Source: Octopus vulgaris (taxonomy: Eukaryota). Taken from it: a DNA stretch of 64,000 nt. The notes under the pieces were generated by a model. The model saw only the letters and a program-made list of their open reading frames with translations, searched no databases and was not told the origin of the DNA. Positions 892 through 63,120 of the stretch are shown piece after piece. Position 1 is the first letter of the stretch; each line of letters opens with the position of its first letter. The stretch spans positions 96,286,001 to 96,350,000 of the forward strand of contig OX597819.1 in NCBI GenBank assembly GCA_951406725.2, read 5' to 3'. Made by a program: the position numbers and the translations under genes.

Positions 892-1449
892 ATCTATTAT
901 GTGTAAATCAAAGCGATATATGAATATACATTTTTCATACAGTATGGGAGACTTGGAGGTGAATATGCTTTACACTGTTGAATTCCCTATTCATAGAACA
1001 AACTCTCGCTTAAGTTGACGTGTATGGACAACGCACTCGCTTTAATACCGTAGAGAACTTAGAGACACTGGTAGTTCAGCATACTTGTATCTCCTCAGTC
1101 ACAGACACCATCTAATCGTTCTTATATATATGATAAACGAAATTGTAAAATAAAAGGAAATAAATTTTGAGTATGAACAAGACTTCATATTCTATTTCGT
1201 CATAATTATTGCTAATATACACTCCAGATAATATTACCAACCAGAGAAGCGAACACGAAATCACCCATCGGAGATATTTTACAGCGTGAGTGACAACTCA
1301 TAGTAGTCATAGATGTTGAATATTAATCGATGCGGCTAGCCGTAATCTGCAACATAATTGAGAGCCACCAAGGTATCTGCACGGATAATATATCCCTCTA
1401 AGCTAATATATATATATATATATATATATATATATATATATACTTCACT

Positions 1450-2268
1450 GCCCCAGATTATCTCAATGCATTTCTCCCCAGTGCCTAGTGGGGTAATCTA
1501 TATTTACCTTGATACTTTGGTGGATGGACTTCCATTATGTTCCTCTCAGTTTCTACATTACCGTTACTAAAGTTGATCTTACCTGGGATATTAATATCGT
1601 CTGAATGCCTACTGTAAAGTAAAAGAGTTGTGGATTGTTCAGCTAAGGGTTGCTTAAGGCCGGCCACATCTCCAGCTACACCGACCCCAATGGCTGCACC
1701 TTGAGCCTGCATCTATAGTTTCTTGTTAAACTTTACTATGTGGTTCTTCAAGGTGGTGCTTACGCTAGCCCGTATTGCATGTGCAATCATTCCATTCACC
1801 TCATTGTTGTTCTCGGGGTCTTGGGTGGGTGCAGTCCAGCCACTCCAGCCACTCCAGCCACTCCAGCACTCTGTGGTGATTTTCATCACTTCTGAGCTGA
1901 TGGTGCGTAGTCTTTCCCTCTGTGACCTGGTGGGGCAGAATCTACTGAGCTCATGGTCGTCTAAATAGTCACTGTCGTAGCTTAGTACAAGGAGGAGGAC
2001 CTAGTTCTGTGGGCTATATATTGACAATCTGCCACCAATTCCCTGTTCCTAACTCGCTGTTTCAGTTTTTGTAGGCCTTTGGCAACAGATGAACTGAGTT
2101 GGTGGGACCCCTTCCCATTATGTTCTTTAGTGGTTTTGTTGTACCGGACTAAGATGTGTTGGAGTCTATTTCCAGCTAAGGAGATCTTTGCTGCTGTTTC
2201 ACTGTCAATTTGGAGTGGGATACATATCCTTTTGTTGAAGTCTGTGGCGAAAGAGTCAGCAGAAGTTC
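1450..2268 (-). pseudogene. Decayed Penelope-like reverse transcriptase fragment (family distinct from the two full elements)
   Basis: Minus-strand translation gives KRICIPLQIDSE...KGLQKLKQRVRNRELV (PLE N-terminal region), then TELG/LLVLSYDSDYLDDHELSRFCPTR. It continues TTLKNHIVKFNKKL*MQAQGAAIGVGVAGDVA (RT motif B, QxxGxxIG) and LLLYSRHSDDINI (motif C, degenerate RYVDD). The 3' side abuts (TA)n at 1406-1442. Confidence 0.72.
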
Positions 2269-2405
2269 ATCATTACCTTCTACCGGAGCCGCGTGGAGCT
2301 TAGGTGTTTCACTTATAAGCACAAGCATCACCCGGTCTGAGATTCAAACCCACGATCCCTCAAGCGCGACTCCGCTGGTTTAACCACAAGGCCATGTGCC
2401 TCCAC
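2268..2405 (-). mobile_element. tRNA-derived SINE family C, 5' fragment
   Basis: Similar to 14790-14926 (ccggagcc..gtgga..taggtgttt..cccggtctg..tcgaaacc..taaccac..gcctccac). Confidence 0.75.
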
Positions 2406-3492
2406 ATAACTATGATTAAGCTGTCAAAAATATTTTCTGATCTAGCAGACAAGTGACAAAAAGCATTCCAGCTATGACCATCACCTTTTCTTATGGGATG
2501 TAGTGTCACAAAAATTACGAGTCTTTTTGTTGGAGCGAGCTCTACAAGTTAATGTTGAAGTTATCACAATGAATATTGCAAGCTAACCACTATTCCATTG
2601 TTTCTGGTAATGGAATTTTTATAAATTTTGTAAACTACCTGCTTAATTATTTATTAGGCGGGCAAGTATTCTGCCCGAGAAATAGTCAGACAATTATAAG
2701 CTAGCTAATTCAATGAAGAGGTACATCATTTGATCGAACAATTGTATAGTCATCGTTGAAACTGACGGAGTTCTATTGAATTTGATCACTGATTCAGACA
2801 CTGCGATTCAGACACTGCGATGCACAAAATCAATTACGTTAAACTCACCAATCTGAAAGGACCTGCATGATGTTATGGGTACTGTCCCCTAATCTTTGAC
2901 TGGCAAAATGATTTGTTGTGTTTAATACATCTCCGAATTCATATCCTTCTGGTTAACTTAAACATTTATCACTGCAAGATCGATAAAATGTCTATAAAAT
3001 ACTTTGGTTAATGTATGCCACTTTACGTTTCTCACAAACTTTCTGGTTAGTTGTTATTTAAAACAATAGAGAAGAGATAGAAATCTCTCTCGTGTCGCCA
3101 TGACTAAAATCAATAATAAAATGTCTTAATTTTTGTTTTATTGAAAGCTAATAGCAGTACCCGGCATTAGCCTGGTTAATAGAAAACAACCAAGATTTTA
3201 AGTTTTGCCAGATGGCTTACTGAACAAGTGAAAAAAGACTTTTCTTGTGATTATTAGGAAAAAAGATGGAAAGCTTCATTAAATAGTAGAAAGAGAGCAA
3301 CAGTTGTTAAATTTCAAGTAAAAGTAGTTTGTATTTTATTTGTAGCAGAAATCTGATAAAGCCGAAAGTTAGGAAACAAATTCGAAGAAGGCGAGGAGAA
3401 GCGAAATTTAAAATCCCGGTGAAAACGAATTTTATGAATTTTATTCTATTTTTGATATTGAGTCTCCTTACCAATAAAAAAATGTCTGTGAA

Positions 3493-60016: not shown

Positions 60017-60190
60017 GTCTCTGTCTTCCCTTCCTTGGACCTTTCCCTTTTTTTTATATTTCTAACGAAGAGCTCCGCTCGTAACGTTAAATCCTCCTTC
60101 TTTCTTTCCTTTCCTGAGCGTCAAATAACACTATACTTTATGCACGTCCTCGCGTTGATGTGTTTTCTCTTTGTTCATGTTTGGATTAAC
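60017..60190 (+). mobile_element. Solo PLE 3'-end fragment with degenerate hammerhead (60058-60092), flanked by (TA)n
   Basis: attt-CTAACGA-a-gagc(tcc)gctc-GTAA-cgtt-aaat followed by ttcctgagcg, as downstream of the Neptune hammerhead. Confidence 0.7.
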
Positions 60191-61918
60191 TATATATATA
60201 TATATATATATATATATATATATATATATATATATATATATATATATACACATATATCCATCCATCCATACATACATACATACATACACGCATACATAAA
60301 TACATACATACATATATACATACTTATCCGTTTTTTGCCATAATAGTTGTGTGGAGCCCTGCAATAGCTGTTCGAAGAGTATATGTGACTTAGTGCAATA
60401 AAGTGTCCTCTGATGGTCCGTTGTCGTTGAACAGCTAAAAACACTGGGAACACCTATGCCAGGGCTCCTCCAAACGACAATATTGGGGAAACGTATATAG
60501 GAACTATAACACAAACTTGATTTTTTTCTTTCTTTCTCCCACATTTGCTCTGGAGTTCATAGCTAGTGATACTACTCCATTATAGAGGAATCAGACAGGA
60601 TTATGAAAATCTACGTAGAGCTCTGAGCATTGTAGTAGCAATAGTAAGTTTATTGTTACACGTAAATATTACACACACATACACATACACTCACACACAC
60701 ACACACACAGTCGCACACATATACATTTATACACACACGCACACAAATATATAGATAGATATATAAATGTAAGATCCAAGGATCGAAGTGTGGGAAGAAG
60801 ATGAGCTTATAACAATCCATAGAAAATATAAAAAAACAACAACTTTCGGGAACAAAAGTTGCGAATTTTCCTCGTATCGAAGTACAATATATATATATAT
60901 ATGCACGTATGTATGTATGTATGTATGTATGTATGTATGTATGTATGTATGTATGTATGTATGTATGTATGTATGTATGTATGTACGTACGTACGTATGT
61001 ATGTATGTATTTGGCCTGCATTTATTAAACTTTAAATCACATAAAAAAATGCACACATGCACAGACACGCATACACTTCCGTGTCATACACACATACACA
61101 CTCACACCCACATACACACACACACTCTCTATCTCTCTCTGTCTGTCTCTCTCTCTCACACACACACACACACTCTCTCTCTCTCTCTCTCTCTCTCTCT
61201 CTCTCATACACACATATATGTCAGTATGTAGATATGACGAATGTTGTTTTTCCATTTGTCTATTTATGTCGTGATAAATTATCTATGGAAATGCCGAAGG
61301 TCATGTGACATTATCTTGACTGATGTATATAATAAAAGATATACGATTAGCTCATCGCACGTCACGTGATAGATAAAGTCATCGTTTTGGGGATAGTAAA
61401 GTTAATGAGGATATGCAGGGAAGTTTCGGTAACCTTCAAAGTAATCTGTGTCAGAGCGTAATAGACAGGGGTGAGGGTGGTAATTACACCTTCACCCCTA
61501 CCTCATGTCTCCCCACAAAAGTAATTGTTTCAGAGAACAGCAGAATAATGTACACTGAATGGATGGTATTCATCGGTGGCTAGAGCACCAAAACAGAATG
61601 GAACACACACGCTCACGCACATAAAGACGTAGACACACATTCACACATGCACACAAATAGATATTCAAATGTACATGTATAGATACACATATTCCTACAC
61701 ATATGTACGTGAGTGTATGTGTGCGTGTGTGCATGCCTGTATACATACACACATATATGCATGTGTGTGTGTGTGTGTGTAAGTTAGTGTTAGCCCACTC
61801 TCAGTTTTTCTATTCCCCCACTTGTTTGAATTAATAACAATTTATATATATATATATATATATATATATATATATATATATATATATATATATATATATA
61901 TATATATATATATATATA

Positions 61919-63120
61919 ATAAAAAAGAAATGGAGTTGAAATTGCACAGAGGAATATATTAGAATTAATTACAACTTGAGTATCTTTTAAAATATAGGGA
62001 TATATTTAACCGGTTTCTCATTATACTTTCAAAAGCGCTGTGGCGCGAATTATATCTATTCTCGCCGTTGTTTTAAAAATAGTTTGTTTTTTAAGTAGGA
62101 AAGTAGCTCAGAACGCTGTCTGTTAATGTATAAATTGATTGGTCAACGTTGATGCATTAAGCTGATGTGGAAATCACGTGAGGTCACATAAAAACTTTTT
62201 TCCATTGAATATGTCATACAGCAGTTGGAAAAGAGAGATATAAATAAGTGATATAATAATCGTTTGCATAAAATTGTTATTGGTAATTATTGTTTATTAT
62301 TCAGTCGAAGAATAATGTTATCAGTTAGTGTTAGTTTACTCCCACTGAACATGTTAAAACATATCACTTTATTAACAAGGTGTGGGATATGTGAGATAAT
62401 GAGGTGTGGAGTAAATAAGATAAATGATAGCTGCTACATTTAATTTTAGTCTTCTTAAGAACTAGTCTAAGTAGACAGTCTACAATAATTAATCCATGGG
62501 AAAGGCAAATCGTGTATTACTGATGCTTTATATAACCTGTTCAGCTGTAGCTTGTATTTTTTAATAAACGAACTTTCCTTATTAATTCTTGTTTGGTGTG
62601 TGATTATTGTCTGCACATTGATAGTAGGAGGAGAAGATATTTGAGAGATTTGGTTTTCGTGCATATGTCCAGATGTTTACAATGTAGAATTTGTCTAGTT
62701 TGGGACTATTTATTTGTTGACAATGGATATTTAATCTCATTTTTAACGTGAGTTTAGTTTGTTCAATGTTGTCTTCCCTGCATCCACTGCATTTGATGGC
62801 ATATGCTAAATGTTTTGAAGAAGTTGTCCTGATTTAAATCTGTAAGTTGTGTTCTTAATAAATTTAGCACAAGTTCCACAATTGGATCGTCCACACATTT
62901 TAACTGTTGGAGTTGAGTCCGTAGTTGATAATTTCGCGTTGGTAAATAGTTTTTTAGGGACTTTGGTTGTCTTTTGCATTTGACAATTTTGTATGATTTG
63001 GTACTTTTGGTGTGCAGTAACACTTTTGGTACTACACTGCAATAAATTGATACTTTTTTCAAATTTTTTCGCTTTATGTAAAAAAAAAAAATGTTTATAG
63101 CGTATGTAAGTGAACAATGT
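61919..63120 (-). pseudogene. Decayed Neptune-type PLE: linker and GIY-YIG region plus 3' end at (TA)n
   Basis: KCKRQPKSLK/KLFTNAKL..TVKMCGRSNCGTC..YRFKSGQ and YAIKCSGCREDNIEQT across frameshifts. Confidence 0.75.

Follow-up and report, generated by a model that had tools for sequence, protein, structure and literature searches.

TA runs at the ends of Neptune-type and Hydra-type PLEs in a 64-kb window of Octopus vulgaris DNA

Introduction

Why do PLEs of different clades, lying close together in one stretch of Octopus vulgaris DNA, end at (TA)n microsatellites? An earlier note on this stretch (64 kb, analysed as a whole and hereafter called the window) held that the 3′ ends of several unrelated PLE families are consistently anchored in TA repeats, and that either their GIY-YIG endonucleases (ENs) or their RTs are responsible. 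A preference for (TA)n has been published for Hydra (26 of 27 families), for many Naiads, and for Octopus families of both (Craig et al. 2021, PMC8557442); of the listed Naiad families, 18 of 54 have (TA)n, with five of five in cephalopods (PMC8557442). A microsatellite bias is attributed to Neptune elements by Craig et al. 2021, with reference to Arkhipova 2006 (PMC8557442). Since Hydra, Naiad, and Neptune (TA)n are all covered there, sharing across clades is not new: the cross-family pattern that the earlier note singled out is real, its novelty is not, and TA anchoring here is a local example of a published rule. The basis on which GIY-YIG ENs choose (TA)n is named as open by the same authors (Craig et al. 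2021, PMC8557442). Here, we describe the PLEs of the window, the TA tracts at their ends, and the explanations that these junctions allow.

PLEs and PLE fragments in the window

Table 1. Positions of the PLEs, PLE pieces, and flanking SINE halves in the window.
Position	Strand	Feature	Remarks
1443–2000	-	RT remnant (motifs 4–7) of a further PLE family, decayed	Broken at (TA)18, 1406–1442
13131–13282	.	Putative head-to-head pair, built as 42921–43372	Short end plus end with ~65-nt tail; TA on both sides
22271–22363	.	93-nt piece between two TA tracts	Candidate PLE end
22384–22575	-	5′-truncated pLTR; 75% similarity to the 3′ end of the Neptune-type element	TA on both sides
38047–38295	-	3′ half of microsatellite-containing SINE	Left flank of stack; 70% to tail half of intact copy 20547–21030
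38339–38476	-	Short fragment with decayed hammerhead-like core (by eye; missed by scan)	TA on both sides
38512–42610	-	Neptune-type PLE	5′ boundary approximate; 3′ end 38512 on (TA)17
41403–42494, 39472–41775		Neptune-type ORFs, overlapping frames	RT, CX4CxxC linker, C-terminal GIY-YIG
42620–42854	-	Fragment with decayed hammerhead-like core, by eye	Flanked by TA tracts; upstream of 38512–42610
42921–43372	.	Head-to-head pLTR pair	Minus arm 42921–43070, tail ~90 nt; plus arm to 43372, hammerhead 43118–43179
43435–43569	-	5′ half, same SINE type	Right flank of stack; 75% to head half
45211–49480	+	Hydra-type PLE (earlier ‘Naiad’)	3′ end on (TA)35; left end off TA
45211–45971		Hydra-type element, inverted arm
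45968–46064		Hydra-type element, direct partial pLTR
46065–46135		Hydra-type element, tail	71 nt
46194–48337		Hydra-type element, ORF	One frameshift
~48709–49480		Hydra-type element, 3′ pLTR	Type I hammerhead 49410–49447
60017–60190	+	5′-truncated pLTR, related Neptune-type family	Decayed hammerhead-like motif
61919–63120	-	Decayed PLE 3′ part	3′ end on (TA)38; 3′ UTR; 5′ boundary as in the earlier note

The element at 45211–49480 had been labelled a Naiad. Judged by its sequence, it instead has the hallmarks of a Hydra-type element, near-intact and apparently high-copy: in its single RT-EN ORF the RT comes first (YRDD in frame, 47195) and GIY-YIG is C-terminal, and the protein covers profile positions 2–702 of 704 in two frames with one frameshift (best relative 57%). 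As in the Hydra definition, RWK is present, GxKF/Y is not conserved, and DKT is found; CCHH and a CX2-5CxxC linker are absent, while CKLC (CxxC) and CRH (CxH) lie near the C-terminus, and there is both a canonical hammerhead in the pLTR and (TA)n insertion. Copies of the type I hammerhead recur at 45994–46031 and 45218–45255. Naiad identity was rejected, there being no N-terminal GIY-YIG, DKT instead of DKA, and a canonical hammerhead, and no element of Naiad build was found within the 64-kb window. Compared by eye and on short motifs, the element is a Hydra family distinct from Hydra-1_Obim; six short motifs of the window are absent from the supplement of Craig et al. 2021, in which line wrapping can hide matches. 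None of 47 candidates among viral contigs was a Hydra relative.

The Neptune-type element has a C-terminal GIY-YIG with CCHH, an upstream CX2-5CxxC linker, and DKG, as Neptune elements do, its homologues carrying no clade names. Residues C634/C639/C642, C667, C678, H700, and H715 are invariant in 20 aligned sequences; Pfam matches are RVT_1 (E 6e-8) and, below the cut-off, GIY-YIG (E 0.005). A hammerhead-like motif at 38616–38641 has its first core base changed, and a short TA run (42611–42619) lies at the presumed 5′ side.

Two decayed remnants lie towards the ends of the window. The right-hand one (61919–63120) retains a CX4CxxC linker and a GIY-YIG remnant at ~62600–62900 (E 0.003; profile search iE 6e-4). 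At the left-hand one (1443–2000), TA begins ~12 codons past the RT motif ‘DYPTRH’, which corresponds to residue 347 of 681 in the relative P0250; because nothing remains of the thumb, linker, EN, or 3′ UTR, the break falls inside the RT and is no 3′ end, and the ‘3′ end’ proposed at 1450 was rejected. Neither the Neptune nor the Hydra profile matched this remnant.

Among the shorter pieces, 60017–60190 splits a compound tract of the form (TATG)n(TA)n...(TA)n(TACA)n. As 42921–43372 is a head-to-head pair, both of its TA flanks adjoin 3′ ends; 13131–13282 may be a second such PLE pair, to judge from its architecture, and 22271–22363 is possibly a PLE end. Both of these pieces, like 42620–42854, are additions to those described in the earlier note.

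A hammerhead scan blind to TA returned six matches, four on PLE pieces (43118, 45218, 45994, and 49410) and two tied to no element (22878–22966 and 19032–19097), shuffled sequence giving ~1 match per window at scores 8–10; it missed the Neptune-type motif. Folding of eight motifs gave z-scores of -2.3 to +0.6, and folding energy is therefore no evidence for hammerheads. Among the 150 of 288 Rfam matches listed there was no hammerhead family; nearly all were microsatellite-driven miRNA, and all were below the gathering score.

TA tracts at PLE ends

Pure TA tracts can be read from the sequence at 38477–38511, 49481–49550, 61843–61918, and 1406–1442, and TA was confirmed on both sides of the four fragments that the earlier note had described in this way (22384–22575, 38339–38476, 42921–43372, and 60017–60190). 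Within the window, a run of (TA)≥8 lies within 3 nt of eight of the nine outward-facing PLE 3′ ends (38512, 22384, 60190, 38339, 43372, 42921, 49480, and 61919), a tally subject to ascertainment, as the short fragments were first spotted through their TA flanks. The ninth, at 45211, is the inverted arm of the Hydra-type element: 26 nt short, it is joined without TA to a mariner-like remnant, a point against explanation by TA targeting. Anchoring thus holds for the ends at 38512, 49480, and 61919 and for most others, but not ‘consistently’, and not for 1450.

At random positions, the background of such adjacency is 0.13% (28 tracts, 1164 bp); long TA tracts make up 1.8% of the window, yet hold eight of the nine ends. 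Control ends (n = 42; three SINE families, CR1, and Helitron, with the Tc1-like end at 30814 left out) lie near TA once within 3 nt, twice within 35 nt, and four times within 70 nt. Fisher’s test gives p = 1e-7 against 1/42 and 6e-6 against 4/42 for PLE ends that are not independent, 42921 and 43372 being one insertion and several ends lying in a common cluster. For the ends of ORF-bearing elements alone, three of four are on TA (binomial p ~1e-8). TA adjacency therefore exceeds both the background and the SINE and CR1 ends, and the parity with other elements that, according to the earlier note, would refute the idea is not seen.

These proportions make it very unlikely that specific targeting is absent and that TA is merely a general sink (breakage-prone, neutral, and AT-rich), in which an EN with no more than an AT preference ends up through the TA richness of the genome. 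Such a sink would fit the non-PLE elements that also touch TA, namely two of the three tails of one SINE family, a CR1-like tail at ~35680, the Tc1-like end, which adjoins (TA)17, and a Helitron-like end (CTAG, 34583) that runs into an imperfect array of TA. The mariner-like and CR1-like pieces of the window are so named for their motifs; a Pfam search did not confirm them.

Long TA tracts divide evenly into those that touch a PLE-like piece (14/28) and those without a PLE neighbour (14/28). Mean tract length is 46 bp for the former and 37 bp for the latter (p = 0.17), so that PLE-adjacent tracts are not shorter. At 38–43 kb, a ~5-kb stack of PLE pieces sits between two SINE halves whose order and strand are correct; the TA of this stack amounts to 181 bp in five tracts, whereas the three intact SINE copies compared have 72, 0, and 0 bp. 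Half copies of SINEs occur elsewhere in the window as well, and the two flanking halves could be independent fragments.

Other genomic copies and relatives in other hosts

Could the junctions be products of assembly, in which collapsed TA joins unrelated repeat ends, or of ascertainment, in which only TA-framed fragments are noticed? The choice of the short fragments by their flanks would fit this, as would the junction at 45212, which was not reproduced in run X1; there, a contig of single-copy depth continues for 244 further letters. The loose ends of the same run, however, show a TA consensus behind 46069 in 27 contigs and behind 46136 in 28 (agreement 0.80 and 0.69, respectively). Raw reads (9 from X20, 29 from X21, and 0 from X22) place TA behind 46136 in five X20 reads and before 46072 in five, and the tail is therefore flanked by TA at either end. 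The Hydra family thus has two fixed termination sites, with TA after both in other genomic copies. These independent data largely refute an artefact, which we regard as extremely improbable; the TA-blind scan matches on PLE pieces and the ORF-defined ends speak against it as well.

Among Hydra relatives in other hosts, (TA)≥4 occurs within 300 nt at five of eight hammerhead-bearing ends, and 13 tracts of at least five units occur across 11 loci (45 kb); this retention of TA ends, like the published Hydra record, argues against a general sink. Neptune-type relatives from other animals count against TA targeting: none of 11 hammerhead-bearing ends is in TA, and 80 loci (258 kb) hold a single tract of at least five units. 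That count is biased, since the sequences are metagenome contigs, probably put together from short reads and broken off at TA. In one Neptune-type family, three copies stop at an identical position, each followed by a different flank that is not TA. Of the 11, four have a linker that can be read as intact. TA anchoring of Neptune-type elements may thus depend on family or host, and for Neptune-type families, whose relatives at TA-poor loci end in non-TA DNA, the general sink may hold in part.

Origin of the TA junctions

We consider it probable that Neptune-type and Hydra-type PLEs, and hence at least two clades, end at TA through predicted GIY-YIG nicking of TA runs that already exist and RT copying from the nick. 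From known PLE biology, the EN would nick a TA run already present, and the RT would copy the element RNA from the nick by predicted target-primed reverse transcription. Reverse transcription starting at internal RNA sites would yield ends with and without a tail, 5′ truncation would be frequent, and head-to-head pairs would form. Each insertion would divide one tract into two, offering more targets and leading to stacked elements, and tract length would then likely be reset by ordinary replication slippage. TA on the truncated 5′ side of 22575, 38476, and 60017 must come from the target, as priming at the 3′ junction cannot supply it. Template copies continue without a TA tract at 46065, at 46136, and at loci L083 and L088. 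The position of the 38–43 kb stack between two halves of one SINE type, which carries an internal microsatellite, also favours insertion into existing tracts, and AT-rich cleavage and internal RT initiation have been demonstrated in vitro for a Poseidon element (PMC11167929).

The linker was rejected as a sufficient TA-targeting module: in the CxCX5C linker, the second Cys is replaced in the window’s Hydra copy and intact in seven of seven aligned relatives.

Alternatively, the RT could make or lengthen TA, with a UAUA/AUAU patch at the RNA start pairing with the nicked strand and being copied repeatedly, telomerase-style, before the element. Matches in phase between run-on and TA (4/5 nt at 46065, 4 nt at L088, and 3 nt at L083) are in keeping with this idea, as are the TA surplus of the stack over intact SINE copies and the undiminished PLE-adjacent tracts, pure splitting being expected to shorten them. 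Yet matches are weak or lacking elsewhere (1 nt at 46136, 1–2 nt at L091, and none in phase at 13282 and 43372); 5′-side TA must derive from the target; half of the long tracts have no PLE neighbour; slippage accounts for tract regrowth; and the Poseidon RT began in vitro at a site non-homologous to the cut DNA (PMC11167929). On balance, RT-made TA is unlikely. A literature search, with most subscription papers out of reach, returned neither RT-made TA nor primer-template microhomology in PLEs. An extended form for Hydra-type PLEs, in which the RT adds TA from such patches at internal starts and insertions both split and lengthen tracts, so that PLEs would be a main source both of the genome’s TA microsatellites and of new targets for themselves, we likewise hold to be improbable.

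Of the two mechanisms that the earlier note left side by side, EN targeting of existing TA is thus the better supported, and extension of TA by the RT has no direct support. The self-reinforcing system that it envisaged survives in so far as each insertion would split a tract in two, but not as an account of the tracts without a PLE neighbour. For annotation, the results offer a Hydra family distinct from the one named in O. bimaculoides and suggest reading short TA-framed fragments as PLE ends. Hydra-type and Neptune-type elements in one host are material for testing (TA)n choice by GIY-YIG ENs. RT-made TA, if true, would connect the origin of microsatellites with RTs related to telomerase; the present data do not show it.

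Comparison with known systems

The Hydra-type element shares with its clade the C-terminal GIY-YIG, RWK, DKT, lack of CCHH, CxxC/CxH, canonical hammerhead, and (TA)n insertion. Hydra-2_aMil has the same hammerhead stem I/III, and Penelope-13_HM has an inverted 5′ copy, as here. Hydra-1_Obim (Octopus bimaculoides) is alike motif by motif in the N-terminal protein half, by eye, but differs in its hammerhead. Departures from the clade are the missing second linker Cys and a body (46065–49480) of 3.4 kb versus ‘generally <3 kb’, a tendency and no strict rule, the length being due to a 1.1-kb 3′ region; the 71-nt tail compares with 30–40 bp described for PLEs. Naiads share the (TA)n preference and a tandem/inverted structure with tail, but have an N-terminal EN, DKA, and no canonical hammerhead (PMC8557442).

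The Neptune-type element agrees with its clade in DKG, GxRF, the CX4CxxC linker, and a CCHH-type C-terminal GIY-YIG, and has a hammerhead-like motif in its pLTR; its TA end sets it apart from relatives in other animals, which in the biased sample above mostly lack one. Poseidon PAc of Anolis likewise has two internal RT starts defining a tail and AT-rich cleavage in vitro (Frangieh et al. 2024, PMC11167929), but cuts 5′-ATT-3′ and not (TA)n, with start sites non-homologous to the target (PMC11167929). Finally, in guayule and rice, microsatellite-targeted SaTar arrays of MULEs place unrelated elements next to one another and uninterrupted in microsatellites, like the clusters at 38–43 kb and 22 kb, although these are plant DNA transposons with other chemistry (PMC5907723).

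TA tracts at PLE 3′ ends

The window, with a GC content of 37%, is rich in repeats and holds 28 pure (TA)n tracts of at least eight units (hereafter long tracts; 1164 bp in total). Its SINE motifs resemble those of octopus. Every TA tract listed in an earlier note, which described Penelope-like element (PLE) 3′ ends as consistently anchored in (TA)n, is present in the sequence. Only outward-facing 3′ ends, called by ORF, hammerhead, or homology, were counted (38512, 22384, 60190, 38339, 43372, 42921, 49480, 45211, and 61919). A long tract lies within 3 nt of eight of these nine, so that ‘consistently’ holds save at 45211; the expected chance of such adjacency is 0.13% per position. 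Among 42 non-PLE control ends (three SINE families with 16, 6, and 16 ends, two CR1, and two Helitron), a list without the Tc1-like end at 30814 that adjoins (TA)17, one lies within 3 nt of a long tract, two within 35 nt, and four within 70 nt. Fisher tests yield p = 1e-7 (8/9 versus 1/42) and 6e-6 (8/9 versus 4/42), values to be read in light of the mutual dependence of the nine PLE ends and of the fragments having come to notice via their TA flanks. For ORF-bearing elements alone, three of four ends are on TA (p about 1e-8). PLE 3′ ends in the window thus stand well above both background TA density and SINE/CR1 ends: the adjacency is real, well above chance, and was partly mislabelled.

Naiads are defined by an N-terminal GIY-YIG endonuclease (EN), DKA, and the lack of a canonical hammerhead, and Hydra elements by a C-terminal EN, RWK, DKT, a hammerhead, a CxCX5C linker, and the absence of CCHH, in the relevant passages of Craig et al. 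(2021, PMC8557442). The supposed Naiad at 45211–49480 matches the Hydra set, save one replaced linker Cys and a 3.4 kb body, which rules out the former name. The second linker Cys is the one replaced, and 13 contigs from the four sequencing runs aligned to 44100–48700 (X1, X20–X22) have another non-Cys base at 47892; the Hydra family may therefore target TA despite a degenerate linker. The remnant at 1443–2000, previously taken for a 3′ end, consists of RT motifs 4–7 of a different PLE family; as its final matched block covers residues 332–347 of a 681-residue relative, TA there adjoins an internal break, and the remnant was rejected as a 3′ end. Because two fragments turn out to be pLTRs akin to the Neptune-type one, unrelated families are fewer than the list in the earlier note implies: two clades are backed by motifs, and further pieces are unassigned.

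TA adjacency is not exclusive to PLEs, as Helitron-like and CR1-like elements, two SINE tails, and a Tc1-like end also touch TA-rich tracts.

PLE pieces and other repeats in the window
Positions	Feature	Details
666–891	12-bp tandem array	perfect, 18.8 copies
13131–13195	tail between two termination sites
22384–22575	pLTR	Neptune-related
30814–31500	presumed Tc1/mariner-like end	decayed transposase; begins right at (TA)17, also the tail of a SINE
32618–34583	Helitron-like	Pif1 helicase frames, 3′ hairpin, CTAG end (34583), then imperfect TA array
34729–35054	two SINE 5′ halves	microsatellite-containing SINE; opposite orientations around (TA)11
35060–35680	3′ end, taken to be CR1-like LINE	no Pfam match; then TA-rich tract
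38047–43569	stack	5 kb; four PLE-like pieces, TA tracts between
38047–38295	SINE tail half	
38512–42610 (−)	Neptune-type PLE	
42921–43372	head-to-head pair	a 3′ end at each TA flank; tail of ~90 nt on one arm
42921–43010	tail between two termination sites
43435–43569	SINE head half	
44782–45210	mariner-like fragment	decayed transposase, left of Hydra element; continuation to its right not seen
45211–49480 (+)	Hydra-type PLE	
46065–46135	tail between two termination sites	71 nt
47891–47893	second linker Cys codon	replaced
60017–60190	pLTR	Neptune-related

Other Hydra-family copies

Other Hydra-family copies in the four runs break off at either of two fixed positions, 46064 or 46135; these enclose the tail, and TA follows each. 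Among the 12 loose-end results listed (337 further ones lie outside), X1 contigs have a TA consensus behind 46069 (27 contigs, agreement 0.80) and behind 46136 (28 contigs, 0.69), X20 reads have TA behind 46136 (five reads) and before 46072 (five reads), and four X21 results fall elsewhere and are non-TA; X22 has zero reads matching 44100–48700. An X1 contig of single-copy depth is identical to 44100–45212 and extends 244 letters further, so X1 likely lacks the 45212 junction. Either the Hydra insertion itself or a subsequent deletion at its left end is likely polymorphic, and one of these may be behind the exception at 45211.

Relatives in other hosts

Metagenome contigs from other hosts contain 11 Hydra-type loci (10 reaching the C-terminus, eight with a hammerhead and at least 150 nt beyond) and 80 Neptune-type loci (38 reaching the C-terminus, 11 with a credible hammerhead and enough flank; L005, L053, and L070, with hits that are not credible, and L045, whose contig stops, were left out). 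(TA)n of at least four units occurs within 300 nt in five of the eight hammerhead-bearing Hydra loci, and TA adjoins none of those 11 Neptune-type ends; in one Neptune-type family, three copies share an end point with three distinct non-TA flanks. Tracts of at least five units number one in 258 kb (the 80 Neptune-type loci) versus 13 in 45 kb (Hydra loci), a contrast that serves as a caution and not a rate, given that the loci come from different hosts and kinds of assembly and that contigs built from short reads break off at TA. TA anchoring appears to extend across the Hydra clade, but less so across Neptune. The Hydra-type contigs (L081–L091), with hammerheads and TA tracts, are in GTDB bacterial MAGs, most likely as animal host contamination; one of them, L088, has a 66-nt tail.

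Probable insertion into existing tracts

Going by known PLE biology, the EN would nick (TA)n, the RT would begin within pLTR RNA, and copies would frequently be 5′-truncated or inverted. Three fragments have TA on their truncated 5′ sides, and the Hydra tail has it on either side, placements that priming at a 3′ junction cannot supply; internal template copies continue without a TA tract. The stack of PLE pieces (38339–43372) is flanked by a tail half and a head half of a single SINE type on the same strand, ordered as in intact copies, which hold an internal microsatellite. This is suggestive of insertion inside the microsatellite of one SINE copy, a reading limited by half copies of that SINE elsewhere. 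Together, these observations favour insertion into existing tracts. Pure splitting of such tracts is opposed by the PLE-adjacent ones not being shorter (mean 46 versus 37 bp, p = 0.17) and by the TA content of the stack, 181 bp where three intact copies of the SINE have 72, 0, and 0 bp. Both findings could be due to regrowth by slippage, to preferential use of long tracts, or to TA addition by the RT. Pairing of Hydra RT start sites with TA is a weak alternative: an in-phase match spans 3–4 nt at 46065, L083, and L088, but is scant or absent at 46136, L091, 13282, and 43372. The self-reinforcing feedback proposed earlier is half borne out: a PLE-like piece adjoins 14 of the 28 long tracts (10 on a strict list), and the other 14 have no such neighbour.

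Comparison with known systems

The sharing of TA across families, singled out in the earlier note as the notable part, is already published: (TA)n is given for 26 of 27 Hydra families, Hydra-1_Obim among them, and for 18 of 54 Naiads, among them all five cephalopod ones, in the supplement of Craig et al. (2021, PMC8557442), and the paper, citing Arkhipova (2006), links the Neptune microsatellite bias to the linker. Tandem and inverted structures and tails (PMC8557442; PMC3846280) and hammerheads within pLTRs (PMC4209133) have likewise been described. A 2026 Octopus vulgaris repeat annotation counts active PLE families, its main-text passages covered here not treating target sites (PMC13282606); the passages covered of a killifish Neptune paper (PMC12602865) and of the main text of a retrozyme preprint (10.64898/2026.07.22.740005) hold nothing further on targets. 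The tails of ~65–90 nt found here between two termination sites in three families exceed the 30–40 bp described for PLEs. The two Hydra-family termination sites parallel the two internal RT start sites of a Poseidon element in vitro (PMC11167929), and plant MULEs likewise stack in microsatellites (PMC5907723).
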